From a virus (taxonomy: Duplodnaviria; Heunggongvirae; Uroviricota; Caudoviricetes): a DNA stretch of 64,000 nt. Position 1 is the stretch's first letter, and every line of letters starts with the position of its first letter. The translations under genes were made by a program, and so were the position numbers. A model generated the notes under the pieces. The model was not told where the DNA came from, did not search any database, and worked only from the letters and a program-made list of their open reading frames with translations. Below, in pieces: positions 19,595 through 41,906 of the stretch. Location of the stretch: positions 141,860-205,859 of IMG/VR virus record IMGVR_UViG_3300028797_000096; one strand, 5' to 3'.

Positions 19595-20335
19595 ATGGAA
19601 CAACCATTAGTTTCAATAGTTTCTTTATTATATGATATAAAAAAAGAATATGTTAATGAATGTATTGAAAGCATACTAAATCAAACATATCAAAATTTGG
19701 AAATTATTTTTATCGATGATTGTTCTCCTAACATAAAATATAATTATATAAAAAAATTATCTCCAAAGATTAAATTAGTAAGAAACAAAACTAATTTAGG
19801 AATGAATAAAACTGCACAAAAAGTATTTAATTTAGCAACGGGTAAATATGTAGTTAGAATAGATAGTGACGATATAATAGATCCAACTTTGATAGAAAAA
19901 GAAGTAACTTTTTTAGAAAATAATCCTAATTATGGGGCGGTATGTTGTGAATTAAAAAGATTTGGTAAAAGACAACAGTATATACATAGACCAGTGCAGT
20001 GGAATTTAAAATCTGTATTATTTGGAAAGATTAATGGTTACGGATATGCCGGTGGAATGATGTTTAGGACTTCTTTGTTGTCAGAAATAGCTATTAATGA
20101 AAATTATAAAATGTGTGAAGATTTTGATTTTCATTTACAAATATTAGAAAGGATGCCAATAAAAAGTATTCTTGAACCATTATATTATTATAGAGCGCAT
20201 GAAACTAATTTATGTAATACTATCAAAACAGAAGAAAGATTACAAATTAATGCTACAATTTTAGCAGTGCATAGAAAATTATATACAGAAATGCATCTTT
20301 CTAAATTAAAGAAAAAAAGAGATAGGTATTTTTAA
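19595..20335 (+). CDS. Glycosyltransferase family 2 (GT-A)
   Basis: PLVSIV..Y...CIESILNQTYQNLEIIFIDDCS, NLG..N..ATGKYV.RIDSDD (DxD), EDFDFHL. Confidence 0.92.
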   Translation: MEQPLVSIVSLLYDIKKEYVNECIESILNQTYQNLEIIFIDDCSPNIKYNYIKKLSPKIKLVRNKTNLGMNKTAQKVFNLATGKYVVRIDSDDIIDPTLIEKEVTFLENNPNYGAVCCELKRFGKRQQYIHRPVQWNLKSVLFGKINGYGYAGGMMFRTSLLSEIAINENYKMCEDFDFHLQILERMPIKSILEPLYYYRAHETNLCNTIKTEERLQINATILAVHRKLYTEMHLSKLKKKRDRYF

Positions 20336-21123
20336 TGAATACAAATAATATGGATTTTGTATATATAATTAAACCTGGCGAAAAAGGTATAGATTTAAGA
20401 TATTCTCTTAGATCGATTGCTAAATATTATCCTAATAATAAAGTATGGATTATTGGATATAAGCCAGCTTGGGTTACAAATGTGGAATATCTTCCGGTTG
20501 AACAAAAAGGAACAAAATGGGCTAATTCTACTTTAAATGTAATCAAAGCTTGTGAATGCCCAAATATTTCAGATAATTTTATCTTAATGAATGATGATTT
20601 TTTTGCAATTAGTCCAATTTTACCGTTAGAAAAAGTAATTGATTCTAATCTAGGAAAATTAGATGATATTATTATTAGGTATAAATCACATGTTGGTGGT
20701 TGGGCAGATGGATTTGCTCATATAAAGAATTTATTAAATGAATTAGGCATTAGAAAACCTTTATATTCATATGAAGCACATTTACCTATAAAAATTAATA
20801 AACAAAAATTTTTAGAAGTAATTAATTTACCACTTGTTCAAGAATTTATGAAAACTTCAAAAGTATTACATAAACGAACTTTATATAAAAATTACGATAA
20901 ACCAAAAAAACCTTTTATATTATCATTTGATGTTAAAGTTACAGAAAAAAGAGATGATTCTTTAGATTTACTTAAAATATGTGGTTGGTTATCTGTAGCA
21001 GATAATATTGTAAATAATAGCAAGTTTAAAGATCTAAATACTTTATTAAATAATACTTTATCTCAACCTTGTAAATATGAGTTACAAAATATTAAAATAC
21101 ATAAAAAAGAAAAATATTTTTAA
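20335..21123 (+). CDS. Stealth-like / GT-A-fold sugar(-phosphate) transferase
   Basis: DFVYI...DLRYSLRSIAKYYP..KVWIIG...SDNFILMNDDFF resembles Stealth CR1/CR2 (D.VYT, ELRYSLRS, FI..NDD). TAATG-coupled to the GT2 gene. Confidence 0.65.
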   Translation: MNTNNMDFVYIIKPGEKGIDLRYSLRSIAKYYPNNKVWIIGYKPAWVTNVEYLPVEQKGTKWANSTLNVIKACECPNISDNFILMNDDFFAISPILPLEKVIDSNLGKLDDIIIRYKSHVGGWADGFAHIKNLLNELGIRKPLYSYEAHLPIKINKQKFLEVINLPLVQEFMKTSKVLHKRTLYKNYDKPKKPFILSFDVKVTEKRDDSLDLLKICGWLSVADNIVNNSKFKDLNTLLNNTLSQPCKYELQNIKIHKKEKYF

Positions 21124-21127
21124 GATA

Positions 21128-21154
21128 AAAAAACCTCCGAATAAAGGAGGTTTT
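21128..21154. terminator. Bidirectional terminator between convergent genes
   Basis: aaaaaacctcc-gaataaa-ggaggtttt. Confidence 0.8.
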
Positions 21155-21174
21155 AATTTATACTAAACATAAAA

Positions 21175-21432
21175 TTATTCAGTAACTGGTACATAACGTA
21201 GTACAGCACGAACTGCTAATTTACCAGCATCTGCACCGAACAAAATTTTCTTTGCAGATGTACGGAAAGAACGCAATTCTTTAACATCTGGAACAGATTC
21301 ACCAGATTCAACTTCAATGCCTGCAATTACATCAGCCATTGCAACGGGTTCTGTTAATGTTTCTACTACATCAGAATATACTGCATGTACCATTTCATCT
21401 TTATAAATATGAGATTTAACAACTGCTGTCAT
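21175..21432 (-). CDS. Hypothetical protein (85 aa), stand-alone transcription unit
   Basis: GAGGA SD; own GTTCTA motif (21520-21525), 5' hairpin and terminator. Confidence 0.65.
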   Translation of the reverse strand: MTAVVKSHIYKDEMVHAVYSDVVETLTEPVAMADVIAGIEVESGESVPDVKELRSFRTSAKKILFGADAGKLAVRAVLRYVPVTE

Positions 21433-21539
21433 TTTATTTTCCTCTAGTATTTATTAGCGCCTTATCAAATCTGAGGAATATTATTATTACGGCGCGCATA
21501 ATAATAATTCCTTATTTTATAGAACTAAATTCGATTATA

Positions 21540-21570
21540 GCTTTACAAGTTAATAAAATTTGTATATAAT
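21540..21570 (+). promoter_or_regulatory. Sigma70-type (early) promoter
   Basis: GC-TTTACA-N17-TATAAT. Confidence 0.72.
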
Positions 21571-21607
21571 AAATAATGTAATTTAAATAGAAAAAAAGGT
21601 TAAAATA

Positions 21608-22162: not shown

Positions 22163-22165
22163 AGA

Positions 22166-22828
22166 TTATACTTTTTTTAATACATGAACACGTGAATCTT
22201 TTTCGCACAAACTAGTAGCTCCTACTCTAAAATTTGTAGGAGTTATTATTTTATTCCGTACAAAGTTAGGTTGTGTATCATTTGTAAAAACTGCCCCACA
22301 ACACCATACCATCAAATCATTATTTAAAGTATCAATAAAGGCTATTTTAGAGCGATGATCTTTTTGATTACCTTCAAAATTTTCAAATGTATGCAGCATT
22401 TTTACTTTATCAGATAATTTACCTGTAATAATCTGAGATCCTCCCAAAAAATAGCATTGATCAGTTAAAGACAGTGCTTTTTTTATAAAGGGTTTTAACA
22501 ACGAAAACGGAGGATTGCCTATAATAAAGCAATCTTTTAAGCTAGTACAAGAATCATTTAAAAAGTCTTGCTGTATAACGGTTGAATCTAATGGGCATAA
22601 ATCATAACTTTTACAAGTTATACCTTTACTACGAATATATTTTTCCCATCTACCATCTGCAGCACAAGGATCTACCCAAGTTTTTTCTCTTAATTCAGGA
22701 TATGTATCAAGTAAATCATCTACAATCAATTTTATAATAAAATCGGGAGTAAAATATAACTCACGATTTTTACCGCGTTTACTTGTATTTCTATTTTTAA
22801 AATAATGCTGTTTTGTTGAATCTGACAT
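22166..22828 (-). CDS. N6-adenine DNA methyltransferase (orphan)
   Basis: YFTP, WVDPCAADG (motif I), DFL, IIGNPPF (motif IV). Confidence 0.85.
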   Translation of the reverse strand: MSDSTKQHYFKNRNTSKRGKNRELYFTPDFIIKLIVDDLLDTYPELREKTWVDPCAADGRWEKYIRSKGITCKSYDLCPLDSTVIQQDFLNDSCTSLKDCFIIGNPPFSLLKPFIKKALSLTDQCYFLGGSQIITGKLSDKVKMLHTFENFEGNQKDHRSKIAFIDTLNNDLMVWCCGAVFTNDTQPNFVRNKIITPTNFRVGATSLCEKDSRVHVLKKV

Positions 22829-22878: not shown

Positions 22879-23466
22879 TTATCTCTTTTTTCTCATTTCT
22901 CTGTCATAGCACTGACGACATACAGATTTATAAACAACATGTCCATCATCAATATCTATAGTTTTACTTTCTCTAATTAAATAACCAGAAGGATGATATC
23001 GTAAATGATGATTTGCAGTATTCATACAACCTATCATTTGACAAGTAGTCCTTAATTCGTGTAATTTAGCCCCTACTTCAATTAAATGTTTAGAAGCAGG
23101 AAATAACTTTTCGTTTACATCTGTTAATAAACCATAACAAAAAATTAATCTATCATATGTATCTGCAAGTTTGACTAAACTATCTATATCTTTTGGCTTA
23201 AAAAATTGAACTTCATCTACCATATATATTTTAGAATAAAATTCTCGCATTTGGATAATGTCTTCCCATTTAATCTCTTTCATAATAGTTGCTGGGCATT
23301 CTAATCCAATTCTAGAAGTAATTTTTGGTTCTTCTGTCCTGCTATCAGCTTTAGGTTTAATTACCCAAACATCGGCATTTTTTTGTTCAAAGTTATATCT
23401 TTCTTGTATTAAATGAGAACTTTTACCTGCTGCCATTGTTCCATAAAAGAAATGAAGATTTGCCAT
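22879..23466 (-). CDS. tdk: Thymidine kinase (TK1 type)
   Basis: YGTMAAGKS Walker A, VDEVQF, YGLLTD, Zn ligands CQMIGC and CRQC. Likely start is MANLHF at 23466 (track 23502). Confidence 0.93.
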   Translation of the reverse strand: MANLHFFYGTMAAGKSSHLIQERYNFEQKNADVWVIKPKADSRTEEPKITSRIGLECPATIMKEIKWEDIIQMREFYSKIYMVDEVQFFKPKDIDSLVKLADTYDRLIFCYGLLTDVNEKLFPASKHLIEVGAKLHELRTTCQMIGCMNTANHHLRYHPSGYLIRESKTIDIDDGHVVYKSVCRQCYDREMRKKR

Positions 23467-23482
23467 TGTATACCTTTTTATT

Positions 23483-23512
23483 AAAAAAGAGGTATATTTC
23501 AACCTCTTTTTT
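23483..23512. terminator. Hairpin/terminator between nrdD C-part and tdk
   Basis: aaaaaagagg-tatatttcaa-cctctttttt. Confidence 0.65.
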
Positions 23513-23520
23513 TGAGAAGT

Positions 23521-23952
23521 TTAGATTAACTGTTCCTTAAGTTGTTCTGCTTTAATAAACTTACGATTTGGAAAATCTTCTTTTCTACGAGTAGGATTCC
23601 AGTTTTCTACAATTGAAAAATATCCAATTACACGAGAAAAATGATTTAATTTTTTACTAGCACAGTGTGGACATATTTCAAAGTTACCTTTTTCTACTTT
23701 ATGGCATTCACGACATTCTGTATAAACACAATTCAAAGCAAAATGTTCTGCACCTGCATCAATTGCTTTCATAATCATATTTTTAGCTTGTTGTGAAGTT
23801 AATTTACTATCTACTGAATAGTGAACAATAGATCCACCTGTCATAAGTGAATTAATTTCACCATCTCGTTTCATTTTTTCAGAGATTGTAAAATCTTCCC
23901 ATAAACTGCACCATTGATTAGCATATATATCTTCCATTTTTCTTTTACGCAT
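23521..23952 (-). CDS. nrdD: Anaerobic (class III) ribonucleotide reductase, C-terminal glycyl-radical part
   Basis: GGSIVH, Zn ribbon CRECH...CPHC, glycyl-radical motif SRVIGYF. Own AGGAG SD. Confidence 0.9.
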   Translation of the reverse strand: MRKRKMEDIYANQWCSLWEDFTISEKMKRDGEINSLMTGGSIVHYSVDSKLTSQQAKNMIMKAIDAGAEHFALNCVYTECRECHKVEKGNFEICPHCASKKLNHFSRVIGYFSIVENWNPTRRKEDFPNRKFIKAEQLKEQLI

Positions 23953-23961
23953 TTTTTACTC

Positions 23962-25716
23962 CTATTCGTATAAGTAATCACCATTTTCATCAGCAAAAAT
24001 TAGTTTATCTGCTTTAGCAATCTTTGGCGCAGCACCTTCGGCTGGGATTGCTTCAATATTAAAAATAATGTTTTCTTGAGTAGCAATTCTTTGACATTCA
24101 TCATTGAAATACACTAAGAAATCTTTCATGTAATCAAAATCGATATGATCAAATTTAAATTTTAAGATCTTATCAGCTTCTACATATCCGACACAACCAA
24201 AAGTACTAAACATATGAGACATATCAATCCATCCATTAGAAATCCAAGGTTGCTTACCTAATTCTTCTAATTTTAAGATTAAAACTTTATGTGCTTTTAA
24301 AATCTTACCCATTCTAGCAACACGCTCTGCTACAATCTTTTTAAAGTCATCATAAGATTCGGCTTCATAAGCACATCTAGCAAAATTAATAGTTACTACA
24401 CGATGTGAGCCTAAAGAGACCTGTGAACCACCAAATGAATTAACACCACCTGCATATGCTAAAAAGTCAGAATCGCTTAATAAACGACAGCATGAAGCAA
24501 CTTTTGAACCTTCTGAAGCATAAATATTATAACGAGAAATATCTGCATTCTTGGTCAAATAATCAAGCAATTTATTATCTTCATATGTTAACTTATTATT
24601 ACCGCTTTCATCTTTAGTAGTACCAAAGTTACAGGTAGTTACAGGAAATGGAAATTGTAAACCACCACGTAATGGATCACCTTCATCGAAGACATCAATA
24701 TAAATTTCTTGTAATTCTTCAATATAATCTAAAACAAATTCTTTCCAAGCTTCTTTTGTATCTTCTATATTATTATCTTCGCATACTGCTGCTTTTTTAG
24801 GAAAATACCAACCATAATTATCATCTTCGATTAAACCTTCTAATTTGTTTTTATCAAATAACGATACATTGGTAAAAGGTGATTCTACAGCATTACGAGA
24901 ATAATGATTTACTGTATGAATAAATTGCTGGAAATGATTTGCCATAGATTTCCGTACTTTTTTGTCATTTCTAAGGTCATCTAAAGCAATACGTTCACGG
25001 TAAATTGCCAAATGACAAACATCCATAAAGAAAGTACCAATGGCTACAGCACCTGCAATATTAAAGGAAATTTCACGAATTGTATCTCCTAATACTGAAA
25101 TATAAGTAGAAATACGATGAGCAGGTGAAGAATGTACTTGACCAAAATTACGACCTTCTGTTACAATTTTAGAAGCATCGATACAATAACAATATGGAAT
25201 AAGGATTTTAGTAGAATCGTTTAAAAAAAGACTAAAATCATACATATCTGCTGTACATTTTTTAGCCTCTTCTTTACCATATAAATCTTTAATAGTTTGA
25301 TATAAATAATCATATCCTGCTAATTTTTGATATGGTAGAAATGATTCTACACAAACACCTGTCATATTTGAATCTGTTTTATTTGCATTATCATCAATAG
25401 ATACATCATTTACAGACTGAAGATTACCAAATACTTGTTTGGAGATATTAGCTAATGGATCAAAATTTTCAGCAGATAAACCATGTAATTTAAGTAATTC
25501 ATTTACTTTATCTTTTAAAACTTCTTTATCTTTAATATCATACTTAGACCGAAGCGCTTTCGTTAATGTTTCTGTAATATTTTTTAAAGTACGAGTAGTT
25601 GTAGCATCAGACAAATTTGCATCAATAAGCTTATTCATCTCATCCTGATATGGATTTTCCATATTATTATCGAATTCAGGAAACTTAATTTTAATCGCTT
25701 TCTTTTCTTCGGTCAT
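23962..25716 (-). CDS. nrdD: Anaerobic (class III) ribonucleotide reductase, N-terminal catalytic part (no ATP cone)
   Basis: ESPFTNVS, FPFPVTT, ASCCRL finger loop, LGSHRVVTIN, FSTFGCVG, NIEAIPAEG. Ends at TAG. Confidence 0.9.
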   Translation of the reverse strand: MTEEKKAIKIKFPEFDNNMENPYQDEMNKLIDANLSDATTTRTLKNITETLTKALRSKYDIKDKEVLKDKVNELLKLHGLSAENFDPLANISKQVFGNLQSVNDVSIDDNANKTDSNMTGVCVESFLPYQKLAGYDYLYQTIKDLYGKEEAKKCTADMYDFSLFLNDSTKILIPYCYCIDASKIVTEGRNFGQVHSSPAHRISTYISVLGDTIREISFNIAGAVAIGTFFMDVCHLAIYRERIALDDLRNDKKVRKSMANHFQQFIHTVNHYSRNAVESPFTNVSLFDKNKLEGLIEDDNYGWYFPKKAAVCEDNNIEDTKEAWKEFVLDYIEELQEIYIDVFDEGDPLRGGLQFPFPVTTCNFGTTKDESGNNKLTYEDNKLLDYLTKNADISRYNIYASEGSKVASCCRLLSDSDFLAYAGGVNSFGGSQVSLGSHRVVTINFARCAYEAESYDDFKKIVAERVARMGKILKAHKVLILKLEELGKQPWISNGWIDMSHMFSTFGCVGYVEADKILKFKFDHIDFDYMKDFLVYFNDECQRIATQENIIFNIEAIPAEGAAPKIAKADKLIFADENGDYLYE

Positions 25717-25730
25717 TTTTATACTCCATG

Positions 25731-26246
25731 TTATTTAGTAAAATAGTATCTTCCATCTTTAGATATTTGATTATAGTTTTTATCAAATAAGTTTTGTGTT
25801 GTATTTACAAATTGGATATATTCATCTGTTTTTTTAGATTCGCGCATAGAATGAGCATCAAATTTACCACACTTAATAAAAGTAAATCCATTTAAACCCA
25901 TTTCCTTAACTTCCTCTATATCATATCCTGTATAAATACAAATATCATATTTATATTCTGTATTATTACCTAAAAGTTCACAAATATGAATAGTTAAATT
26001 TCTATTACATGGATTTAATGGATCACCACCAGATAAAACTATCTTATTAGTCTCATTTCTTAAACACAACTTTTGAATTTCTAATATAATAGATTGTTCT
26101 TGATCATATGTCCATTCTTCATGTAATTCTTGTAATTTTGGATTTTGACATCCTAAACAGTTATGTGAGCATCCAGACATAATTACTACAACAGCGAGAT
26201 CGTCTGGATTAGGATAATCTAAAAATGTAGTTTCAAAGCTTATCAT
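25731..26246 (-). CDS. nrdG: Anaerobic RNR activating radical-SAM protein
   Basis: GCSHNCLGCQN (CxxxCxxC), VLSGGDP, IYTGY; adjacent to nrdD. Confidence 0.92.
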   Translation of the reverse strand: MISFETTFLDYPNPDDLAVVVIMSGCSHNCLGCQNPKLQELHEEWTYDQEQSIILEIQKLCLRNETNKIVLSGGDPLNPCNRNLTIHICELLGNNTEYKYDICIYTGYDIEEVKEMGLNGFTFIKCGKFDAHSMRESKKTDEYIQFVNTTQNLFDKNYNQISKDGRYYFTK

Positions 26247-26252: not shown

Positions 26253-26507
26253 TTATAAGGATTTTAATGTATCACGTAAAATTTCTTGTTTAACTACTAT
26301 AGTATCTTTACCTTCTTGTTCGATTACAAAAGTGGGTGCAGATTTAATACCATATTTAGTAGCATATTCCATTGCTTCTGGATTTTGACCAAAAATTAAC
26401 ACATCATAAGTATTATTTGGAAATTCTGCTTGTATTTGCTGATATTCTGGCTCAAACTGCTTACATCTTTGACAATTTGGTGTTTTGATCTCTATAATAT
26501 GTGCCAT
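26253..26507 (-). CDS. Thioredoxin/glutaredoxin-like protein
   Basis: TPNCQRCKQFEP (CxxC); YGIKSAPTF (cis-Pro motif). Confidence 0.85.
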   Translation of the reverse strand: MAHIIEIKTPNCQRCKQFEPEYQQIQAEFPNNTYDVLIFGQNPEAMEYATKYGIKSAPTFVIEQEGKDTIVVKQEILRDTLKSL

Positions 26508-28276: not shown

Positions 28277-29152
28277 TTAAACGGCTATTTCAAAACTTAC
28301 TTTTTCTCCATATTGATAATTTTCTAATTTAGCCATATCTGGTAAGAAATTAAATACTGTTGCATTTGGATCTAAGATTAAATTAGGCAAAGGAATTTCA
28401 CATTTTTCCCAAGTATTCATATGCTCAGCAATAATAGGAAGATGATTATCATAAATATGACAATTACAAAACTCTAATGTTAATGTACCAACCTGCATAC
28501 CAACTGTTTGTGCCATTAAATGTAATAATAAAGCACCTTGAACCATATCTGATGGTACACCTAAAATAGTATCTGCACTTCTTTGAATTCCTGTTAGATG
28601 TAATTGATTATTAAGATAATTAAATTGCCATGTATGTAGGCATGGTGGTAAACCCATTGTATCCATATGAGCAGGATCCCACGCTGTCATAATCATACGA
28701 CGATCATATGGATTTGTTTTAAGAGTATCTACAATTTGAGAAAGCTGATCAATACCTTGTCCTTTATAACCTGTATCATAGCTTTCATATTGTGCACCAA
28801 AATAACGATAATTCCAACCATAAATATTACCTAAATCTCTCTCTTCTTTCATTCCTTCTTTATTAAAATATGGAACTTTTTTAGGATTACACCAATAATC
28901 CCAATAATTACAACCACGCTCTTTATATATTTGCTTATCTGTAATCCCTTCTAAAAAGCAAGATAATTCACCTTTTACGCCTTTAAAAGGAATTTGTCTA
29001 AAAGTAAGAATAGGAAAGCCTTCGTTTAAATCCCAGGTAAGACTTTTATTTAATCTTACAAGGACTTCGTTGCCTGTACGGCAAGGCGCATTAAAACCTT
29101 CCTTTAAAATTTCTTTAAGCAAATTTAAATATTGTTGGTTGTAAGCATTCAT
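28277..29152 (-). CDS. thyA: Thymidylate-synthase-family enzyme with Asp at the Asn177 position (possible dCMP methyl-/hydroxymethyl-transferase)
   Basis: RTG, FPILT, KGEL, DRRM, LPPC (catalytic Cys), QRSAD and HIYDNH are present. However it reads GVPSD where ThyA has GxPFN, and PCL where ThyA has PCH. Confidence 0.85.
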   Translation of the reverse strand: MNAYNQQYLNLLKEILKEGFNAPCRTGNEVLVRLNKSLTWDLNEGFPILTFRQIPFKGVKGELSCFLEGITDKQIYKERGCNYWDYWCNPKKVPYFNKEGMKEERDLGNIYGWNYRYFGAQYESYDTGYKGQGIDQLSQIVDTLKTNPYDRRMIMTAWDPAHMDTMGLPPCLHTWQFNYLNNQLHLTGIQRSADTILGVPSDMVQGALLLHLMAQTVGMQVGTLTLEFCNCHIYDNHLPIIAEHMNTWEKCEIPLPNLILDPNATVFNFLPDMAKLENYQYGEKVSFEIAV

Positions 29153-29163: not shown

Positions 29164-29538
29164 TTATTTTTTTGCACGATTACATATATCTAGAACTTCA
29201 TACTCTTCCAAATCTCTTATTAAATTACCATCACTATCTACTTCACATACTGATACACTATGATTTTGACCTTTAGTAATATTATTAATAAATGTATGAT
29301 AAGAACTATTAAAATACTGTAAATCATCTAAATCATTCAAATCAAAAGGGATTACTTCATTAGATATAAAAGAACATTTACTTGAACGTACTTTACCTTT
29401 TTCTATATATAAAATTTTATCATAACGACCTTTACCATAAAATAGAAAACTAGGAGTTTCTGTTCTATGATTCATTTCACTACGCTCTAAAGCATTTTTA
29501 TATGCTTTCTCTGTAATTACTTTGTGTAATACTTTCAT
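29164..29538 (-). CDS. Hypothetical protein
   Basis: 124-aa ORF in the operon; no family recognised. Confidence 0.55.
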   Translation of the reverse strand: MKVLHKVITEKAYKNALERSEMNHRTETPSFLFYGKGRYDKILYIEKGKVRSSKCSFISNEVIPFDLNDLDDLQYFNSSYHTFINNITKGQNHSVSVCEVDSDGNLIRDLEEYEVLDICNRAKK

Positions 29539-29541
29539 TTT

Positions 29542-29913
29542 TTAATCCTTCTTTTCATCATTTTCTTTTTTAATATCTTGTAATTCATAATATACTAAAC
29601 ATATCATATTCCAAAGTGCTGCTTGTAAATGAGTAGATGGATGTTCTTCAAAATTAGGATCTTCATCCCAACGATTACCTCTTTTATATTCCATAAAATG
29701 TCGCATTAAAGCAGACTCATATCTTTCTTTACCATGATCTACTAATGTCCATGACCAAGGTTCATATTTTTTTGCACCAACTGTATATCTATTTACTGCC
29801 GTTTCAATAACTTCCCATGGTAATAAAGACCAATTAAGTTTACCTTGATCATATTTAATTCCACCACCTGGTTCTTTTGCAGTAATTATTTCTTTATATT
29901 CTTTCTTAGCCAT
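29542..29913 (-). CDS. DUF5664 / dATP-dGTP diphosphohydrolase-like all-alpha NTP pyrophosphatase
   Basis: GIKYDQGKLNWSLLP...GAKKY..WSW....RYESALMRH...D.....HL.AALWN. Likely start MAKKEY at 29913 after AGGAG (track 29937). Confidence 0.8.
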   Translation of the reverse strand: MAKKEYKEIITAKEPGGGIKYDQGKLNWSLLPWEVIETAVNRYTVGAKKYEPWSWTLVDHGKERYESALMRHFMEYKRGNRWDEDPNFEEHPSTHLQAALWNMICLVYYELQDIKKENDEKKD

Positions 29914-29930
29914 AGTAATTCTCCTTTCTT

Positions 29931-30083
29931 TTAGCAACCGAATTTTTCAAATTGTTCTACACAAACTGATAAACATTGTTCTGGTGTAATTTCAATATAT
30001 CTAGTACCAATATCAACACCAAGCAAAAATACAACAATAGTAAAACAAATACCTAAAATAATTTTTGAAATTATATCTGTCAT
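29931..30083 (-). CDS. Small membrane protein (50 aa; not in ORF track)
   Basis: AAGGAG SD. MTDIISKIILGICFTIVVFLLGVDIGTRYIEITPEQCLSVCVEQFEKFGC*. Confidence 0.65.
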   Translation of the reverse strand: MTDIISKIILGICFTIVVFLLGVDIGTRYIEITPEQCLSVCVEQFEKFGC

Positions 30084-30209: not shown

Positions 30210-30719
30210 TTATTTTGAACCAGTACTTCCAAAACCACCTGTTGCTCTTTTTGTTTTTGGACCCTGATCATATACTTTATTAGGTACACCTTTTAAAGCT
30301 TCATTTGAGATGTTAATAATAATACCTTGAATAATCTTATCACCTGGATTAATTACAGTTGCCCATTCTTTAAATCCTAACCAACCTAAAAATCCTTTAC
30401 GACGAACTCGAATATCTTCGGTGCCTTTTACTACTTTAAACATATTCAAATGAATTTCACCACGATAACCTGCATCAATTACACAAGCACCAAATACTAA
30501 ACCTTTCTTTAATGCTACACCAGATTTATTCATCATTTGTAAATATTGATTGCTTTTTAATTTAGTTTTAATACCAGATGGAATATTAACTTGTTCACCT
30601 AATCTCAAAATATAAGATTTACCTTCATTCCAATCATTTGGAACGAAAAAGTCAATACCAGCATCTTCTTGGCGATTACCAATTGGATCTTTAACATCCT
30701 TAATTTTTGTATAAATCAT
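30210..30719 (-). CDS. dut: Trimeric dUTPase
   Basis: AGIDF, NKSG, VIDAGYRGEI, KIIQ, RATGGFGSTG (motifs 1-5). Confidence 0.93.
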   Translation of the reverse strand: MIYTKIKDVKDPIGNRQEDAGIDFFVPNDWNEGKSYILRLGEQVNIPSGIKTKLKSNQYLQMMNKSGVALKKGLVFGACVIDAGYRGEIHLNMFKVVKGTEDIRVRRKGFLGWLGFKEWATVINPGDKIIQGIIINISNEALKGVPNKVYDQGPKTKRATGGFGSTGSK

Positions 30720-31042: not shown

Positions 31043-34000
31043 TTATCCTTCTAACAATTCTTTTTCAATTTCATCTTTATGCTTTTCATAATATTTATAT
31101 TTATTACGAATTACAAACTTATGATCTTTATCTAAACAATCACCATCAGGAATCATCTTTAATAATTCTTCCATAGGTACTTGTGATATTAATCTTGGAG
31201 ATAGTTTTTGACAAGCAGCAAAGCGATTACCTTCACTCCAGTCAAATTTTTTAATATGTCTCTCCAAGGCTTTCATATCAACTTTACCTGTATATTCTTT
31301 AAATGGTTTTATACTTTCTTTAATTCTTGGTAATTCGGCTAAAATAGTATCAACATCTAAGACATTTTTATCATATAAATATAAAGTAGCCATTTCACCA
31401 GTTTTTGGATTCATTTGATCTGGTACTCGGGTATATTTAGATGGTACATTGGCTTGTTCATCACATCCAATAAGCTTATAAGTATACATAATATAATACC
31501 ATATATTCTTATATTGCAAAGCTGTTACAGGATGACTTAATTTAACTACACAATGATATGATTTACTACCCGACCAAACAACACGATACCACAAATCTTT
31601 ATGTTTATTAATTTGTTCTTCTTGTTCTTCTTTAGTCATATCATCACATTCAAATAGTAAATTTTGTGCATATACATTACTATTAGTTGGATATTCGGCT
31701 GTATTATCTTTAAAATTATTTAAAGCTTGTAATACATCTTTTTCTTCGACCTTTTCATAATCTGCTGTATAATATGGACCAAATTCACCACTATTATCAT
31801 CTAATAAATTTCTAGCAAATGCGATATATTGCATAGTATTAATTTCATCCATAGTTAAGGTATTTAAATCATCAACTAATAGCATATGATCATTAAAACC
31901 TGTAATCTTACTTATAGTATGTACTATTTCTGTTTCAGGTTTACCATCTTTATCTAAAACAGGATTACCATTTTCATCTTTCTTAGCAACACTTCTTGCG
32001 TTTTTACTACGACTATAATAAGATTGTGTTCTTGGATCATTAGGAAAACCTACTACAAAAGCTAAACTACGACCATCAACTTTTTTATTAGTTTTACCAT
32101 CATAAATCTCACCAATCGCATGTTTCTTATATAATACAAAATCTCTTGGTTCTACACCATCTAATAACGGCTGATCTGTTACCATATTACATAAAATCTT
32201 AGAAGTAGCTTTACCAAATTTTTCGTTTGATAAATAAAACCCTTTAGACTTTACTTTGCCATTAGTAAACTTACAATAGTAATTATTAACATTATTCTGA
32301 GCTAAAGTATCAATTTCATCAAATTCCAAGACTAATCTCGTTTCTTTTTGCCATTGATCAGCAATAGGCATAAAATCTACCCCTTCTTGGCGTTCAATCA
32401 TAATACCATCAGTGTTGGTTTGAATAATATTAAAACCAGCATCATATAAGCGTTTTACCAAAATAAATAATAGCAATTGTCCATGCACGCAAATTGATGA
32501 ATTAGACCATGTATCATATAATGGATTAAATTCTGATAACATAGCACCAATAGCACCGTTAAGAATCAATTTAAGACCTAAATTAAGAAGTGTTTTTCCT
32601 TCTTTTTTAGCTTGTAAACGTGTATGATATACTTCTTTATATGATTCAGGATTTTTAGCAGCCCCTCTAGACATTAATCCATATTCCACCAATAAAGAAG
32701 GATACAATGAAGCAACGTCCATATTAACTAAATTTTTACTTCTATATCCAATCAAAGCTTGATGTAATCCACCAAATCCAAATTGATATTTATGACCTTC
32801 ATCAAAACCACCAAGTTGTACTTCAAACTTTTCTTTAATATAATCCGGATTATCTTGATTATCTAAATAGAATTGTAAAAGTTTTGTTGGTGTACCATCA
32901 TCATTTACTAATTCTTTCATTGCTAATTCTGGAATAGAATAATATTGTTTCTTGCCATTTACTATTTTATAAGTATTTTGTTTATTAGCTTTAGCATCTT
33001 CACCACACAATAATTTACCTGCAAAAGACGATGATTTATTAATAAGAGTTTTAGCTTTCATCTTATATTCAACAATCATATTCCAGCGAATATCATATGA
33101 TTCTTTTGCAAATGTACGTTTTGGATTATCAGGATCTGGCATAAATAATGCTAAAGTATTATCAACGTCCATTTCGCAATACTTTTCAACATCCAATCTT
33201 TCTTTTGGTGTTAATTTTCTTGGAGTATCAAATGAAACGCTACTATCATAATTACGTTTATTTAATACAGACATAGTAAGCTTTTTTAATGAATTACGAC
33301 GGATATCAAATGGACCATGAAAACTAATATCCCAAGATAAGAAATTAGGATTCCAATTTGATTTTGGCTTCATTTCAGGATATGCAGGTTTAGCTCCATG
33401 TAAAATTAAAGCATCTGAATACTTTTTAACAGTTAGGCTTTGATCAATTAAAAATGGAAAACACATAGCATGACGAATAACTACATCGTCATATGCTGCA
33501 TTATTAAATCCAATTAAAATTTTATTCTTGGCCCAATCATATAATCTTTCTGGATCATTCCAACAGATTAATCTATTTTTACCATCTAAAGTTTTAGCAA
33601 CAAAAAGCCAATCATCATGAAATACTTCAATATCGTATATCCATTCAAATTTTTGTTTAGTATTATAACCTTCTCTTTCGATTTCTTTATCATCTAATCC
33701 TAAAGTTGGTAATACTTCTTTATACCATTTATAATACCATTCTGAAGGTTCAGTACCATTTCTATCACCTGTAATTTCAAATTTACTAGCTTTACCTATA
33801 GTTGTTACTTCTGGTAAATTATTAACATCAGATATAGTTATTTGATCTTTAAATGGAAATAATTGTATTAAATTTTCTACATTATTACCAATTACAGGAA
33901 TAGTAATCAATACTTTTTTTAATATATCATAAAACTTTAACTTTAACTCTTGAGAATCATTTTTACAAATATCATCAGTAGGGCAATACCTTAAAGTAAT

Positions 34001-34714
34001 TTTAGTATATTCATCATAAATACTAAAATATTCAATCTTACGAGTTACTAAATTGGCTTTACCTTCAAAAGTAAAATAGGATAAAATATTGTCTTCATAA
34101 GCTTCTAATAAGAATTGTAGTTTAGTAATAATTTGATTGGTATCGCAATAAGGTGATAAAACTATTTCTTTACTAAATGAAATATTATTTAATTGTTGTA
34201 CAATATTTGTATAATCTTCTGTAATATCAGGTAAAATTACATATGGTACTAATACATCTTTTGGCTTACCTTTTTCGTCTAAAACCAATCTATTTAACCA
34301 TACGGCTGTAATTCTAAGAATCTTTTTATTTTCATTTAGATATAATTCAATTCCACCCATATCCGGTTGTGATAAATAATCTGCTTTAAATGCTTCAAAT
34401 GCTTTTTGACCTACAAATGCAATAACTAACTTATCAGGCTCTAATGTACCTCTTTTAACATAATGCCCTAAAAGATTAAAAAATACATTTCGTGCAAAAG
34501 GTTCATTTGTAGAATCTTTAACATAAGTAATATGTGTTTCTGCTGATTTAAATCTACTTTTAAATACTTCAGTTAAATAATTTATAGCTATAAAAGAATC
34601 AAAGATTTCTTCTTTATCTGTTTCTAAAGGTTGTTCAGCTATTAAAAAAAGCTTAGGTCCTAACTCTGACTCGTATTCTTTCTTACTTCTTTTAATAAAT
34701 GGACAACCCTGCAT
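31043..34714 (-). CDS. Family B DNA polymerase with N-terminal UDG-like domain and C-terminal AEP primase-like domain
   Basis: Exonuclease YDIEVF, GFNNAAYDD, YCEMDV. PolB MDVASLYPS, KLILNG, QTNTDG. C-terminal FECDD, SGSKSYH, D..RVP. N-terminal LFLIAEQP...IAFVGQKA. Likely start is the ATG at 34714 after GGAGG (track TTG 34726). Confidence 0.9.
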   Translation of the reverse strand: MQGCPFIKRSKKEYESELGPKLFLIAEQPLETDKEEIFDSFIAINYLTEVFKSRFKSAETHITYVKDSTNEPFARNVFFNLLGHYVKRGTLEPDKLVIAFVGQKAFEAFKADYLSQPDMGGIELYLNENKKILRITAVWLNRLVLDEKGKPKDVLVPYVILPDITEDYTNIVQQLNNISFSKEIVLSPYCDTNQIITKLQFLLEAYEDNILSYFTFEGKANLVTRKIEYFSIYDEYTKITLRYCPTDDICKNDSQELKLKFYDILKKVLITIPVIGNNVENLIQLFPFKDQITISDVNNLPEVTTIGKASKFEITGDRNGTEPSEWYYKWYKEVLPTLGLDDKEIEREGYNTKQKFEWIYDIEVFHDDWLFVAKTLDGKNRLICWNDPERLYDWAKNKILIGFNNAAYDDVVIRHAMCFPFLIDQSLTVKKYSDALILHGAKPAYPEMKPKSNWNPNFLSWDISFHGPFDIRRNSLKKLTMSVLNKRNYDSSVSFDTPRKLTPKERLDVEKYCEMDVDNTLALFMPDPDNPKRTFAKESYDIRWNMIVEYKMKAKTLINKSSSFAGKLLCGEDAKANKQNTYKIVNGKKQYYSIPELAMKELVNDDGTPTKLLQFYLDNQDNPDYIKEKFEVQLGGFDEGHKYQFGFGGLHQALIGYRSKNLVNMDVASLYPSLLVEYGLMSRGAAKNPESYKEVYHTRLQAKKEGKTLLNLGLKLILNGAIGAMLSEFNPLYDTWSNSSICVHGQLLLFILVKRLYDAGFNIIQTNTDGIMIERQEGVDFMPIADQWQKETRLVLEFDEIDTLAQNNVNNYYCKFTNGKVKSKGFYLSNEKFGKATSKILCNMVTDQPLLDGVEPRDFVLYKKHAIGEIYDGKTNKKVDGRSLAFVVGFPNDPRTQSYYSRSKNARSVAKKDENGNPVLDKDGKPETEIVHTISKITGFNDHMLLVDDLNTLTMDEINTMQYIAFARNLLDDNSGEFGPYYTADYEKVEEKDVLQALNNFKDNTAEYPTNSNVYAQNLLFECDDMTKEEQEEQINKHKDLWYRVVWSGSKSYHCVVKLSHPVTALQYKNIWYYIMYTYKLIGCDEQANVPSKYTRVPDQMNPKTGEMATLYLYDKNVLDVDTILAELPRIKESIKPFKEYTGKVDMKALERHIKKFDWSEGNRFAACQKLSPRLISQVPMEELLKMIPDGDCLDKDHKFVIRNKYKYYEKHKDEIEKELLEG

Positions 34715-34737
34715 TTGTTCCTCCAAATACTTTTAGC

Positions 34738-37050: not shown

Positions 37051-37052
37051 TT

Positions 37053-38288
37053 TTAATCCTTTTTATAAGTACTTGCTTTTGCTAAATTTTTTACCGCTTC
37101 ATCAAAAGTAGGCTGAAAATCTTCTACAATTTGATTTATAGTTAAAGAACTATCATAAGAAATACGAACTGCACTATTTGCATAAGTATCTAAAATATCT
37201 TCACTTTGTACACCTAAATTTTTATAATAATTCTTAATTACTTCACTTCCCGATAAGTTTTCTTCGCTACATGCACTTCCAGTTGAAATACATATTTTAT
37301 TACCTAAAGCACTAACTAAACTTTCACCTTCAATACCTAAAATTGAAAAATTAATAATATAAGGCGAATATTCATCTGTATTTTTAGAAGTAAATAATAA
37401 TTCTACTGCTTTATTATATTTATTTACTATTTCTGGAATAATTTGATAAAAAGCGGTTTTAATAATTTGAGCTTTAGTATAATTATTATTAAGGTTATTC
37501 ATATGATCTTCAATAAGTTTATTTAATAAATATACAAATGTTGGATTTTCTGTACCCGATCTTAATCCATTTTGTTGCATACCACCTTTAATCAATGGAT
37601 TTTTTTGAATATACTTCTCTACTATTCCTTTTTTATAAATTAATCCACCGAAACTTTTAAAAAATCCAATTTTATGAGCAGAAAATGAATAGCAATCAAT
37701 ATCTGTCATATCATAAGGAATTTTACAAAAGCCTTGAGTAAAATCTAAATGTACAACAATTTCAGCATCTGGAAATTTAGAATGAACGTATTCTTTTGCT
37801 GATAGTACTTTATCTACTGGAATAATTAGACCTGTTTCATTATTTACTGCAATAATAGATATTAAAATACGTGTATAAGAAATAAGTATACCATCTAAAT
37901 ATGTTGGTGTATTTGTAATAATATCAAATAAATTAATTTGAATCCAACGAGTAATACCATTACTAACAACACAAGCACTAGAAGCGGCTTTAACTGCATG
38001 ATGTTCAAGATCTGTTGTAATAATTAGTTCAGGATTAAAAGAATAAAAAATGGTATTAATCGATTCTGTTGCACCAGAAGTAAATAAAATATTCCAATCT
38101 TCATTATGATTTAAACATTGTAAAATATTTAATTTACTCTTTTCTATTGCTTGATATGCTTTTTCACCTTCTTTATGAAAAGAAGCAGGATTACCAAAAA
38201 TATTTATAGCATCATAATAATTTCTACTAACAATATTAGAAACAGGTGCAGTTGCTGCATAATCTAGATATAATACTTCATCTTCCAT
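37053..38288 (-). CDS. iscS: Cysteine desulfurase (IscS/NifS)
   Basis: YLDYAAT, GNPAS, FTSGATES, NNETG, HLDFTQ, SAHK (PLP Lys), RSGTEN, STGSACS (catalytic Cys). Confidence 0.95.
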   Translation of the reverse strand: MEDEVLYLDYAATAPVSNIVSRNYYDAINIFGNPASFHKEGEKAYQAIEKSKLNILQCLNHNEDWNILFTSGATESINTIFYSFNPELIITTDLEHHAVKAASSACVVSNGITRWIQINLFDIITNTPTYLDGILISYTRILISIIAVNNETGLIIPVDKVLSAKEYVHSKFPDAEIVVHLDFTQGFCKIPYDMTDIDCYSFSAHKIGFFKSFGGLIYKKGIVEKYIQKNPLIKGGMQQNGLRSGTENPTFVYLLNKLIEDHMNNLNNNYTKAQIIKTAFYQIIPEIVNKYNKAVELLFTSKNTDEYSPYIINFSILGIEGESLVSALGNKICISTGSACSEENLSGSEVIKNYYKNLGVQSEDILDTYANSAVRISYDSSLTINQIVEDFQPTFDEAVKNLAKASTYKKD

Positions 38289-39070: not shown

Positions 39071-40396
39071 TTATTTATAAAATTCACCGACTTCATTTAA
39101 TAATGATACAATAACAGATGTAATTTCTTGCTGATCACCTTGTTTTAATAAAATACTAGCAATTACTTTACCTAGGGTATTACTCATTTCTTCAGTAAAA
39201 CCACGAGTTGTAATAGCAGGTGTACCTAATCTAATACCTGTACATTCTGAAGGTTTAGTATCTCCGGTAATCATATTTTTATTACAAATAATATGGTTTG
39301 CTGTCAATAAATCTTCAGCTTCTTTACCTGTAATTCCTGCACCTTTAACATCGAGTAATATCATGTGATTTTCAGTATCAGCACCACTAACAAAACGTAA
39401 TTTATGTTCAGTATCTTCTTCTTCAATACCTTTAACTAATGCTTTTATATTAGTATGTACTTGATTAATATAATCTTTAAATTCAGGCTGTAATGCTTCA
39501 ATAAACGCTTGAGCTTTGGCTGCTACTGCTGCTTGATTAGTACCACCTGCATTAGCTGGAAATACGGCTTGATTAATTTTCTTACAATAATCTGGATTAT
39601 TCCATAAAATAATTGCAGAACGCGGGCCTCTTAAAGTTTTATGAGTAGTTGTAGTTACCACATCTGACCATTGTGTTGGATCATATTTATCTTCCCATAC
39701 ATGAGCAGCAATAAATCCACTAAAATGAGCCATGTCAGTCCAAAGAATACATTTTTTAGATTCATACTCTTTTTCTTCTTCTTCTGGTGGAAATCCCATA
39801 CAATGCTTAATGTTTAATAATAATTCTTTATTATATTCATCAACTATTTCACGTACTTTTTGAAAATCAATCTTTTTTGAATATGCAGAATAGCCCATAA
39901 TTAACAATCTTGGGCATACATCATATAATTTAGATTTTATTTCATCATAATCAATTCTTTCATTAATTAATTCATAGTTATGATTTTCATAAAAACGACC
40001 AGAATGTGTAAATTTACTTCCATGAGTTAAATGCGCTAATTCATTAAGATTACCTGATAAGGTACGATCTCCTGGTTTACAAAAAGCATAATATACACAA
40101 GTATTAGCATGTGATCCAGACATTGGTTGTACATTAGCAAATTTAACTCTAAACAATTCACATGCTTTAACAATACAATATTCTTCTAATTCATCAATAA
40201 CTTCACAACCAGCATAATGACGACCTTGTTTAGATACAGATAAAGGATAACCTTCTGTATAAGGTACAGAACAAGCAGAACCCATTAAATCTAATATATC
40301 TTGAGATGGATAATTCTCAGATGCAATAAGTACTAATTCACTATTTAATTTATCTTTTTCTTTATTAACAATTTGATTTAATGTTTTGTCTATCAT
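39071..40396 (-). CDS. glyA: Serine hydroxymethyltransferase
   Basis: LIASEN, EGYP, NVQP.SGS, HLTHG, DMAH, TTTHKTLRGPR (PLP Lys), NKN, RLGTPAITTRG. Confidence 0.97.
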   Translation of the reverse strand: MIDKTLNQIVNKEKDKLNSELVLIASENYPSQDILDLMGSACSVPYTEGYPLSVSKQGRHYAGCEVIDELEEYCIVKACELFRVKFANVQPMSGSHANTCVYYAFCKPGDRTLSGNLNELAHLTHGSKFTHSGRFYENHNYELINERIDYDEIKSKLYDVCPRLLIMGYSAYSKKIDFQKVREIVDEYNKELLLNIKHCMGFPPEEEEKEYESKKCILWTDMAHFSGFIAAHVWEDKYDPTQWSDVVTTTTHKTLRGPRSAIILWNNPDYCKKINQAVFPANAGGTNQAAVAAKAQAFIEALQPEFKDYINQVHTNIKALVKGIEEEDTEHKLRFVSGADTENHMILLDVKGAGITGKEAEDLLTANHIICNKNMITGDTKPSECTGIRLGTPAITTRGFTEEMSNTLGKVIASILLKQGDQQEITSVIVSLLNEVGEFYK

Positions 40397-40418
40397 TAAT
40401 TACTCCTTTTTAGAGAAT

Positions 40419-40495
40419 TGGCACTCCCTGAGGAATTCGAATCCCCAACCTGCAGATTAGAAATCTGATGCTCTATCCGATTGAGCTAAGGGAGC
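40419..40495 (-). tRNA. tRNA-Arg (anticodon UCU) with encoded CCA
   Basis: Minus strand GCTCCCTTAGCTCAATCGGATAGAGCATCAGATTTCTAATCTGCAGGTTGGGGATTCGAATTCCTCAGGGAGTGCCA folds as a cloverleaf; anticodon loop TT-TCT-AA. Confidence 0.95.
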
Positions 40496-40496
40496 A

Positions 40497-40706
40497 TTAT
40501 TTCTGTGTTTGCAATGGTTGACCTAAAAACTTTGCTTTTAATTCATTTAATTTACTATAAAAATAACTCCAAGCATCTTCTTGCAAATTAAAATCGATTG
40601 GTCTCCATTTTCCATTATCATTAAAATTTACTATCCATCCTGCTTTATTTGTTGCTTGTATTGGTAATGCTATATATCCTTTAAGCTGATCTACTACCGT
40701 ATTCAT
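40497..40706 (-). CDS. Hypothetical protein
   Basis: 69-aa ORF with AAGGA SD; stop abuts the tRNA 5' end. Confidence 0.55.
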   Translation of the reverse strand: MNTVVDQLKGYIALPIQATNKAGWIVNFNDNGKWRPIDFNLQEDAWSYFYSKLNELKAKFLGQPLQTQK

Positions 40707-40774
40707 TTTCTTTCCTTATCATACTATAGAATTAAACATTAGTAAAATAAAAATTAGAAAAATTTTCTGTTTAT

Positions 40775-40809
40775 AAAAAAATTCCCCAGAATTAACTGGG
40801 GAAAATTTT
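40775..40809. terminator. Terminator after the CofE-like gene
   Basis: ttccccag-aattaa-ctggggaa flanked by A and T runs. Confidence 0.75.
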
Positions 40810-41906
40810 TAATCATTGGACATATTGTCAAAATAGCCTTGGACATATATAAACGGTGTCCCTTTATCACCCGATCCTGAAGTAAGATCCATTAACGAAC
40901 CTAATAAATCAGTATATCTACGCGGTGTCGTACCTTGACTCATCATATTGCCTTTCAAGTTAGAACTTTTATTTTTAATTTCTTCTTTGATAGCCGTATT
41001 TAATTCTTCACCATGTAAATCTTTATACTTTTCATCAGCAAAGTTTTTAATTTTAATTTCATTTGGAGTACCTTGTAATCCCATAGTTGAGGCAGGACTT
41101 ACTACTGGATCAGCAAATTCCCAAATTCCACCAACAGGATCTTTGAAACAGCCATCTCCATAAATCATAACCTCAATCAGTTTTCCAGTTGCATCTTTAA
41201 TTCTTTGTTGAACTTCTCTAACTAAATTTCTTGAATATTCACCACTTGGAAATAGTTTTAACATTTCTTCAGATGCTTTATTAGAGCCATATAAACCATA
41301 TTCACATTTATTTCTACAAATATATGCTAACGTACAATAACCACCGATATTATTTTTCAATTCTTTTATTTCTTCTTCATTACTCGTTGTAAAATACATT
41401 CTAGCATCTATTACAAATGGATTCTCTTTATAAATAGAAAGTAATTCTTTATTTTTTATATCATCAATAATTTCACACTCTTTACCTTCGCCTTCTACAA
41501 TTGATTTATAATATTCATCATAATTTAATTTAGTAAAAGGATGATTTCTTATTACATTGCCAACTTCATCAACTGGTGGCATAATAATAACTACTTTTTT
41601 ACCAGTTCCTCTAGCAATTGCTTTTAAAATCATAGCAAAACGATTACGGGAATAAATTGGTCTATCTATAATAATAACATCCGCATTATCACTAATTTTT
41701 CTAACTTCTTCTGCTACTTCATCAATAGTAACATAATTACCTTGACATCTAGCAACGATAGATTCTGTAATACCTAATACATCTCTATCTTTAATTTCTA
41801 AACCAGAATTCAAAACCGTATCAACTACAATCTGAATTAAATCATCACCTTGTTTGATAATAGGTGCTCTTAAACCATATGAAGCTGTTCCAATAGTTCT
41901 TACCAT
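40809..41906 (-). CDS. F420-0:gamma-glutamyl ligase (CofE)-like protein
   Basis: LRAPIIKQGDDL..IV, DVLGITESIVARCQGN, SRNRF, DEVGN, GDGCFKDP..GIWEFADP, GTTPRRYTDLLGSLMDLTSGSGDKGTPF resemble the bacterial CofE-like family. Confidence 0.8.
   Translation of the reverse strand: MVRTIGTASYGLRAPIIKQGDDLIQIVVDTVLNSGLEIKDRDVLGITESIVARCQGNYVTIDEVAEEVRKISDNADVIIIDRPIYSRNRFAMILKAIARGTGKKVVIIMPPVDEVGNVIRNHPFTKLNYDEYYKSIVEGEGKECEIIDDIKNKELLSIYKENPFVIDARMYFTTSNEEEIKELKNNIGGYCTLAYICRNKCEYGLYGSNKASEEMLKLFPSGEYSRNLVREVQQRIKDATGKLIEVMIYGDGCFKDPVGGIWEFADPVVSPASTMGLQGTPNEIKIKNFADEKYKDLHGEELNTAIKEEIKNKSSNLKGNMMSQGTTPRRYTDLLGSLMDLTSGSGDKGTPFIYVQGYFDNMSND

Follow-up and report, generated by a model that had tools for sequence, protein, structure and literature searches.

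Certain phages act on dCMP before replication with enzymes that have the fold of thymidylate synthase (TS, or ThyA) and an aspartate at the position equivalent to Asn177 of the Escherichia coli enzyme. In phage Xp12, the sole ThyA homolog is a proven 5-methyl-dCMP (5mdCMP) synthase, and the TS, deaminase, and dihydrofolate reductase (DHFR) genes are adjacent; both Xp12 and PaMx74, which have the same enzyme set, replace cytosine completely with 5-methylcytosine (5mC) (10.1101/2024.12.05.627091). Other examples are T4, with its enzyme gp42, and the phages RB69 and DLP3, which combine 5-hydroxy-dCMP synthases with arabinosyltransferases (PMC13326640). This report deals with the ThyA homolog encoded in a 64,000-nucleotide stretch of viral DNA, called the window from here on, which corresponds to bases 141,860-205,859 of the 231,566-bp IMG/VR virus record IMGVR_UViG_3300028797_000096. 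We hold with moderate confidence that the window contains the core of an Xp12-type pre-replicative 5mC pathway in a cattle-gut jumbo phage.

The whole genome is labeled G000, and its coordinates are given in window numbering unless marked as genome numbering. The record has a G+C content of 29% and is rated 93% complete, and the only public runs that contain this stretch, in the form of assembled contigs, are bovine gut metagenomes. Among isolated phages, a megablast search with 14 kb found no close relative at the DNA level. A single-protein scan of IMG/VR recovered no relative either, and a subsequent profile scan did recover relatives; at the protein level they number in the hundreds, on metagenomic contigs of up to ~260 kb. 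The metagenomic relatives compared here are labeled G001-G003, L040, and L051-L053. Among these, G001 is a 237-kb IMG/VR record that retains the ThyA homolog with its Asp, dUTPase, polymerase, RecA, ClpP, serine hydroxymethyltransferase (SHMT, or GlyA), a CofE-like ligase, NrdDG, DHFR, and a deaminase, and is without thymidine kinase (TK), DUF5664, NifS, and NifU. Gene identities were established by profile searches with Pfam, PHROG, and NCBIfam, and these agree with an earlier first-pass annotation of the window in finding GlyA, the CofE-like ligase, TK, dUTPase, DUF5664, and a GT2 glycosyltransferase.

The ThyA Homolog and Its Active Site

The gene for the ThyA homolog (28277..29152, minus strand; PF00303, 238 bits) is the single member of its family in the whole genome, in which neither a second TS nor a ThyX was found. 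Alignments with E. coli ThyA, T4 gp42, and the Xp12 TS set its Asp202 against E. coli Asn177, a replacement already recognized in the first-pass annotation, and this Asp is invariant across 120 relatives that are 60-80% identical. In E. coli numbering, which is used below, the protein has E58, W80, Y94, L143, C146, L147, D169, and D177, where L143, L147 (in place of His), and D169 correspond to its own L168, L172, and D194; of the TS residues, it keeps R21, E58, W80, Y94, R126/127, R166, and H207/Y209. The His147 position is occupied by Leu or Met in G000 and its relatives, the residue three before the catalytic Cys is Leu (in the motif GLPPC), not Asp or Glu, and G000 and every one of the 26 relatives aligned with it have Asp at position 169. 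In addition, a C-terminal tail of the TS type is present, ending in ...FEIAV, with F287 and A290 invariant.

Regarding the substrate, the N177D change confers dCMP specificity, modified viral contigs are told apart from unmodified ones best by positions 177 and 147, and TS homologs with D177 are statistically tied to the modified contigs (PMC8670742); work cited in the same paper has the Asn-to-Asp change switching the TS of E. coli and L. casei to dCMP. Given that this Asp is invariant in the 120 relatives, the G000 enzyme should act on dCMP, and its assignment as a cytosine-directed C5 enzyme is supported by the residues listed above. It is highly improbable that, despite Asp177, the protein is an ordinary dUMP-methylating TS engaged in routine nucleotide metabolism. 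Such a role would agree with its passing the general thymidylate synthase model TIGR03284 (184 bits against a cut-off of 108), with the conservation of all other catalytic residues, and with the presence of DHFR, a dCMP deaminase, dUTPase, and TK, the usual companions of a true TS. It is contradicted by the substrate switch that the same change brings about in the two bacterial enzymes, by an invariant Asp accompanied by the loss of His147, and by scores under the cut-offs of all six narrower NCBIfam equivalog models for "thymidylate synthase" (the NF0024xx series and NF010393).

The nature of the product is indicated by other positions. Hydroxymethylases are marked by an acidic residue, Asp or Glu, at 143, by loss of the C-terminal tail, and by Val in place of Trp83 (PMC6400193, PMC13326640), and 5-hydroxy-dCMP synthases by D169N (PMC13326640). 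With T4 gp42, to which it is 19-20% identical, the G000 enzyme shares the ThyA fold, the Asp at 177, and the predicted action on dCMP before replication; it differs in that Leu replaces the water-activating Asp145 of gp42 and in that Trp80 and the full tail are retained. Similarly, it shares Asp177 with the synthases of RB69 (gp48) and DLP3, phages that, like G000, have glycosyltransferase genes in their genomes, and it differs from these enzymes in having D169 and L143 where they have the diagnostic D169N and L143E. On account of Leu143, Asp169, and the intact tail, the G000 protein is predicted to be a dCMP methyltransferase, i.e., a 5mdCMP synthase that releases dihydrofolate (DHF). Of seven D177 homologs tested by others, five gave 5mdC in vivo (preprint 10.1101/2024.12.05.627091).

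The first-pass annotation had allowed either hydroxymethyl- or methyl-dCMP as the product; the cytosine-directed C5 chemistry in that proposal stands, and the hydroxymethyl part does not, the residues being those of a methylase. There is nevertheless a reading, decidedly unlikely in our judgment, in which the ThyA homolog makes 5-hydroxymethyl-dCMP, or 5mC is oxidized after replication, and the GT2 and Stealth-like proteins encoded in the window then add a sugar or sugar-phosphate. The Leu at 143, where Asp or Glu would be expected, the Asp169, and the conserved TS-type tail all speak against it (PMC6400193, PMC13326640), and further evidence on both sides is given below with the genes concerned.

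As to its origin, the nearest neighbor of the enzyme outside the clade, among the 50%-identity cluster representatives searched, is 39% identical. In a tree of the 150 nearest such representatives, the clade falls within a group in which 12 of 13 members have D177, and the Asn-to-Asp change arose several times in the larger surrounding set, all cases carrying L/I143 and D169. The Xp12 enzyme agrees with the G000 protein at positions 177 (Asp), 169 (Asp), and 143 (non-acidic), yet it is 25-26% identical and falls elsewhere, the G000 TS being on a different branch, closer to TS that are of the eukaryote type or fused to DHFR. Judged from these alignments, the G000 clade is a separate lineage of what appears to be the same functional type as the Xp12 enzyme.

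Folate Supply and Nucleotide Enzymes

It had been noted in the first-pass annotation that the window contains neither a DHFR nor a second TS, and hydroxymethylation had been argued from this absence. The statement is correct for the window and, as far as a second TS is concerned, for the whole genome, but the genome does encode a DHFR (genome 18111-18713, minus strand; profile match, 83 bits), and for this reason the argument for hydroxymethylation fails. The DHFR gene shares one minus-strand row, outside the window, with a gene of the dCMP-deaminase family (genome 19777-20352; profile match, 57 bits) located two genes upstream of it. The 350-aa open reading frame (ORF) between the two, considered as a folate-related gene, was rejected as such, its language-model neighbors, which are the only guide to its identity, pointing to a phage sigma/HTH-type protein. 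Since DHFR is needed only by the methylating TS reaction, its retention counts against a hydroxymethylating enzyme; in T4 a true TS explains the DHFR, whereas G000 has none.

The G000 deaminase is 30% identical to that of Xp12 (E 2e-14), with HAE/PCxxC motifs in both and, at the C-terminus, a common PDxxHHRWGxxW motif. Where deaminases are linked to D177 TS homologs, they have been shown to be selective in converting 5-methyl-dCTP (5mdCTP) to dTTP, which makes a second TS unneeded (10.1101/2024.12.05.627091). The gene content of G000 fits this scheme. As in Xp12, DHFR and a deaminase are present and a second TS is not. Unlike in Xp12, where the trio forms one cluster, it is split in G000 over two distant loci, and this 232-kb anaerobe-associated jumbo phage adds SHMT, the CofE-like ligase, DUF5664, dUTPase, and TK.

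The window itself encodes SHMT (39071..40396, minus strand; PF00464, 353 bits; NF000586, 404 bits against a cut-off of 335), the enzyme that recharges tetrahydrofolate (THF) to methylene-THF (CH2-THF). It is conserved in G001 and L051, is rare among isolated phages (50 of 50,697 records), and would also suit a hydroxymethylase. Its neighbor in G000, still near it in G001, is a CofE-family glutamate ligase (40809..41906, minus strand; PF01996, 154 bits), which is a candidate analogue of folylpolyglutamate synthase. The assignment extends to membership of the PF01996 superfamily only, as the protein fails the CofE equivalog model TIGR01916 (33 bits against a cut-off of 180); compared with the Pfam model, it contains a large insertion, and a phmmer search of PDB sequences returned nothing useful. 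The ligase is among the best-conserved genes of the clade, being 61-93% identical in 120 relatives on contigs of up to 254 kb, and a homolog occurs in one of the 50,697 phage records; the nearest cellular look-alikes are Bacillota proteins of ~397 aa.

A precedent for such a protein in folate metabolism exists in Chlamydia, where the CofE-family protein CT611/FolC2 (COG1478) replaces FolC (PMC1971073). The G000 ligase is like CT611 in belonging to the PF01996 family, in having a folate enzyme next door, here SHMT, and in that no F420 pathway genes were seen nearby, although no dedicated search for F420 genes was made. By analogy with CT611, the chances that the ligase polyglutamylates folate are about even. 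The earlier proposal that GlyA and the ligase feed the ThyA homolog is plausible for a pair of conserved neighbors.

In G000, L040, L051, and G003, the TS homolog is adjoined by a stand-alone DUF5664 protein of a dNTP pyrophosphohydrolase family (29542..29937, minus strand; PF18909, 75 bits; phrog_801). A stand-alone DUF5664 enzyme is a proven dNTP pyrophosphohydrolase acting on dATP, dGTP, and dUTP (PMC12884076). The suggestion that the G000 protein removes a competing dNTP therefore agrees with what is known of the family and goes beyond it for dCTP, so that a dCTPase is what this gene may encode. An AlphaFold2 (AF2) model built from a 3-sequence alignment reached a pLDDT of 50, too low for use, and phmmer against PDB sequences gave nothing useful. 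Because the DUF5664 name denotes a dATP/dGTP diphosphohydrolase, a Z-genome (PurZ/MazZ) system was also considered; PurZ (PF00709) was found neither in G000 nor in G001, in a search whose positive control matched 14 of 14 genomes, and G000 is for that reason not regarded as a Z-genome. DUF550 was not found in G000 in a search without positive control. The trimeric dUTPase (30210..30719, minus strand; PF00692, phrog_135, TIGR00576) has the motifs AGIDF, IDAGYRGE, and, at the C-terminus, GGFGSTG, and its gene adjoins that of the polymerase in all relatives examined. TK (22879..23502, minus strand; PF00265, 119 bits), an enzyme of dT salvage, is an accessory gene, present in L040 and L051 and with no match in G001.

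The remark in the first-pass annotation that no dNMP kinase is visible holds for the whole genome as tested with PF21448, PF02223, and BLAST to T4 gp1, and a Walker-A scan of G000 for a hidden small kinase found TK alone. Among T4 proteins, gp56 dCTPase, gp1 kinase, and the alpha- and beta-glucosyltransferases had no BLASTP match in G000 at E<=0.01. Such a kinase is present by the TS gene in relatives: G001 (TS 62% identical) has a gp1-type dNMP kinase (PF21448) between the dUTPase and TS genes, and G002 and a 263-kb contig likewise encode a PF21448 kinase close to TS. The gp1-type kinases of these relatives are a likeness to T4, as are the pyrophosphohydrolase and dUTPase genes near the G000 TS gene.

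The slot between the dUTPase and TS genes (29164-30083 in the window; G001:C1:175678-177815; L040:8966-9984) is occupied either by DUF5664, in G000, L040, L051, and G003, or by the gp1-type dNMP kinase, in G001, G002, and the 263-kb contig, and in none of these genomes by both. In G000, it also contains, between DUF5664 and the TS homolog, a gene for a 124-aa protein (29164..29538, minus strand) with no Pfam, PHROG, or NCBIfam match and no usable Atlas neighbor. L051 likewise has a 124-aa ORF at this place; in L040, G001, and G003, an unrelated protein of 218-223 aa is found there, and the G000 ORF has no similarity to the 218-aa form.

From these genes, the following pathway can be proposed. 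The sole ThyA homolog would bind dCMP and use CH2-THF as both carbon donor and reductant, giving 5mdCMP and DHF; the phage DHFR, encoded outside the window, would convert DHF to THF, and the phage SHMT would reload it to CH2-THF, with the CofE-family ligase probably glutamylating folate for better retention and use. As G000 is without a recognizable dNMP kinase, a host or unknown kinase must act at the next step, and 5mdCMP would thus be phosphorylated by a host enzyme or an unrecognized one before the PolB-type polymerase incorporates the triphosphate. The deaminase from the DHFR row would turn part of the methylated pool into thymidine nucleotides, and this supply is proposed as the reason why a true TS is absent. 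Finally, dUTPase would clear dUTP, DUF5664 may return dCTP to dCMP, and TK would contribute accessory salvage.

The same genes can be read, although we think it unlikely, as mainly an alternative route to thymidine nucleotides, in which the ThyA homolog and the deaminase operate together and the virion DNA contains little or no 5mC. A genome with 71% A+T (29% G+C) needs ~2.4 times more T than C, it encodes the deaminase with DHFR and has no true TS and no ThyX, and neither a proven dCTP-excluding enzyme nor a dedicated kinase was found in it. Against this, Xp12 and PaMx74 have the same enzyme set and replace all of their C with 5mC, and deamination at the triphosphate level, as shown for mSCD-B5, would expose the polymerase to 5mdCTP anyway (10.1101/2024.12.05.627091); the statistical tie of D177 homologs to modified contigs (PMC8670742) points in the same direction. 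The best reading of these genes is a 5mC strategy already known from phage Xp12, placed in a new phage clade that adds to it SHMT and a candidate folate glutamyl ligase.

The GT2 and Stealth-like Cassette

The window also contains two genes for predicted sugar transferases, both on the plus strand. The first encodes a GT2 glycosyltransferase (19595..20335; PF00535, 93 bits) whose top NCBIfam matches, EpsE and TuaG, are all under cut-off. The second encodes a Stealth-family hexose-1-phosphate-transferase-like protein (20335..21123; phrog_7999, 170 bits), for which Pfam gives a sub-threshold match to CR2 only (PF11380, 30 bits against a cut-off of 39.4). The first-pass description of this gene as Stealth-like is supported by the PHROG match and an AF2 model with a pLDDT of 94, for which the best Foldseek matches were CpsY (8j2n, E 6e-11) and GNPTAB, a GlcNAc-1-phosphotransferase, with a TM score of ~0.6.

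It had been suggested that these transferases decorate hydroxymethylcytosine, and neither this suggestion nor a fixed tie of the cassette to the TS gene is supported. A 5mC base has no hydroxyl and so offers no sugar acceptor, and PF12851 (TET/JBP) had no match in G000, in an insensitive test whose control matched nowhere. Regarding such a tie, the cassette moves among the relatives. In G000, the two genes follow an AAA ATPase gene, with TS ~7 kb away; in G001, the Stealth-like gene is immediately adjacent to that for the tail sheath, in L053 it lies among BppL-like tail genes, and in L052 it is found by head fibre and terminase genes. In the Streptomyces phage TurkishDelight, a homolog stands between the major tail protein and the head-tail adaptor, beside another glycosyltransferase, and the ThyA family is absent from four actinophages that carry Stealth-like genes. 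These shifts of position, together with the occurrence of Stealth-like genes in phages without ThyA, mean that a link to DNA is not supported.

The arrangement in L040 and L051 is evidence for the hydroxymethylation reading. In both, the cassette lies on the same strand between polymerase-S21 and dUTPase-DUF5664-TS; in L040 it consists of two GT2 genes, a Stealth-like gene, and a gene without assignment, and in L051 of a single GT2 gene and two Stealth-like ones. Such variation in gene number and sequence is also like that of DNA glycosyltransferase sets, and some known DNA glycosyltransferases that are associated with ThyA homologs are TarP-like and have the GT-A fold (10.1101/2023.12.21.572611), so that the position of the cassette inside the operon of L040 and L051 leaves a role in DNA glycosylation alive. 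On the other side are the positions by tail and head genes, the actinophages without ThyA, the lack of a TET/JBP match in what was a weak test, and the lack of BLAST similarity to the T4 glucosyltransferases and gp56. We therefore consider that the GT2 and Stealth-like genes are probably outside the DNA pathway and most likely act on non-DNA targets, e.g., virion proteins or host surface polymers. It is very unlikely that the variable cassette puts a sugar or sugar-phosphate on a cytosine derivative in DNA, which would be an unprecedented phosphoglycosyl modification and would require either a hydroxylated base from the Leu143 enzyme or an unrecognized oxidase acting on 5mC.

Two further observations concern Stealth-like genes in other contigs. 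In L047 (ENA ERZ28653829 scaffold_219808, 1330 bp; P0410), a 423-aa protein joins residues 1-190 of the Stealth-like protein (73% identical) to a segment of an Eco57I-type NPPY methyltransferase; this "fusion" is possibly an assembly chimera, the translation of the locus disagrees with the record, and it was not used as evidence. The more distant L052 (ENA ERZ28653690 scaffold_141, 205 kb) has, near its terminase gene, genes for GTP cyclohydrolase I, a dCTP-deaminase-like protein, and GroEL/GroES; the cyclohydrolase may point to a different DNA modification, of the 7-deazaguanine type.

Several points weigh against the 5mC pathway favored here. The rule based on L143 is a correlation drawn from few characterized enzymes, and two of the seven predicted 5mdCMP synthases tested in vivo yielded no 5mdC (10.1101/2024.12.05.627091). 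The sole characterized stand-alone DUF5664 enzyme does not have dCTP among its reported substrates (PMC12884076), and no dNMP kinase was recognized in the genome of G000. The deaminase of G001 is of a different, ComEB-like type, without the Xp12-like C-terminal motif. In L040 and L051, the two closest relatives examined, the cassette is inside the TS operon, as a DNA-glycosylation module would look. Lastly, G000 is available as assembled contigs only, and 5mC in its DNA is a prediction. Palindrome avoidance gives no guidance in this matter: the observed/expected ratio for 4-mer palindromes containing C or G is 0.87 in G000, 0.79 in T4, the hypermodified control, and 1.03 in Xp12, and the T4 and Xp12 values mean that the statistic fails to discriminate DNA modification.

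Other Genes of the Window and Meaning for the Clade

The polymerase gene (31043..34726, minus strand) encodes a divergent 1227-aa DNA polymerase of the family-B type (phrog_1252, 317 bits, residues 356-978) that matches E. coli Pol II weakly. The UDG-like domain that the first-pass annotation had assigned to this protein was not recovered, as residues 1-360 and 960-1227 have no Pfam match even at E<=1; residues ~975-1227 (31043-31800), where Pfam likewise has no match, contain an SGSKSYH motif. Between the polymerase and dUTPase genes lies a 68-aa homolog of ribosomal protein S21 (30796-31002, minus strand; PF01165, 30 bits), which is 97% identical in L040 and is found in L051 too. Just upstream of the polymerase, a GapR-like DNA-binding protein (34801-35055, minus strand; PF10073, 53 bits) is kept in L040 and L051.

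The supply of dNTPs falls to an anaerobic ribonucleotide reductase (23521..26246, minus strand), composed of a split NrdD (584 aa and 143 aa, with PF13597 on both pieces) and the NrdG activase (PF13353). The split of this class III NrdD (23521-25716), with its separate 143-aa C-terminal piece, is the same in L040 and L051, and the protein is fused (716 aa) in G001. The minus strand of the window also encodes RecA, NifU, NifS, and ClpP. Thioredoxin, a 54-aa 2[4Fe-4S] ferredoxin, NifU, and a NifS-type desulfurase (26253-26507, 28079-28243, and 36562-38288, minus strand) are interleaved with NrdDG and TS, a set that the phage seems to carry for supplying the anaerobic reductase with Fe-S and redox functions. 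In addition, a candidate short N6-adenine methyltransferase of 220 aa (22166-22828, minus strand) has an IIGNPPF motif and a match to a DNA-methyltransferase PHROG; in G001, the gene directly next to TS encodes a 215-aa Eco57I/Dam-like protein to which it shows a distant relationship (E 1e-6).

If the 5mC reading is correct, the finding would describe a large and abundant clade of gut phages of ~230-260 kb, from ruminants and other hosts, with hundreds of variants known from public metagenomes, whose DNA would be fully or heavily 5-methylated, with the modified nucleotide made before replication. This would bear on restriction and defence interactions, on methylation-aware metagenomics, and on the discovery of enzymes such as dCMP methylases and 5mC-selective deaminases. 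Moreover, the phage would encode a full folate one-carbon loop, namely the TS-type methylase, DHFR, and SHMT, together with the CofE-family ligase. The conserved pair formed by this ligase and SHMT is the freshest element of the proposed pathway, and the ligase, which is core in the clade yet nearly absent from isolated phages, could readily be tested as a possible viral analogue of folylpolyglutamate synthase.

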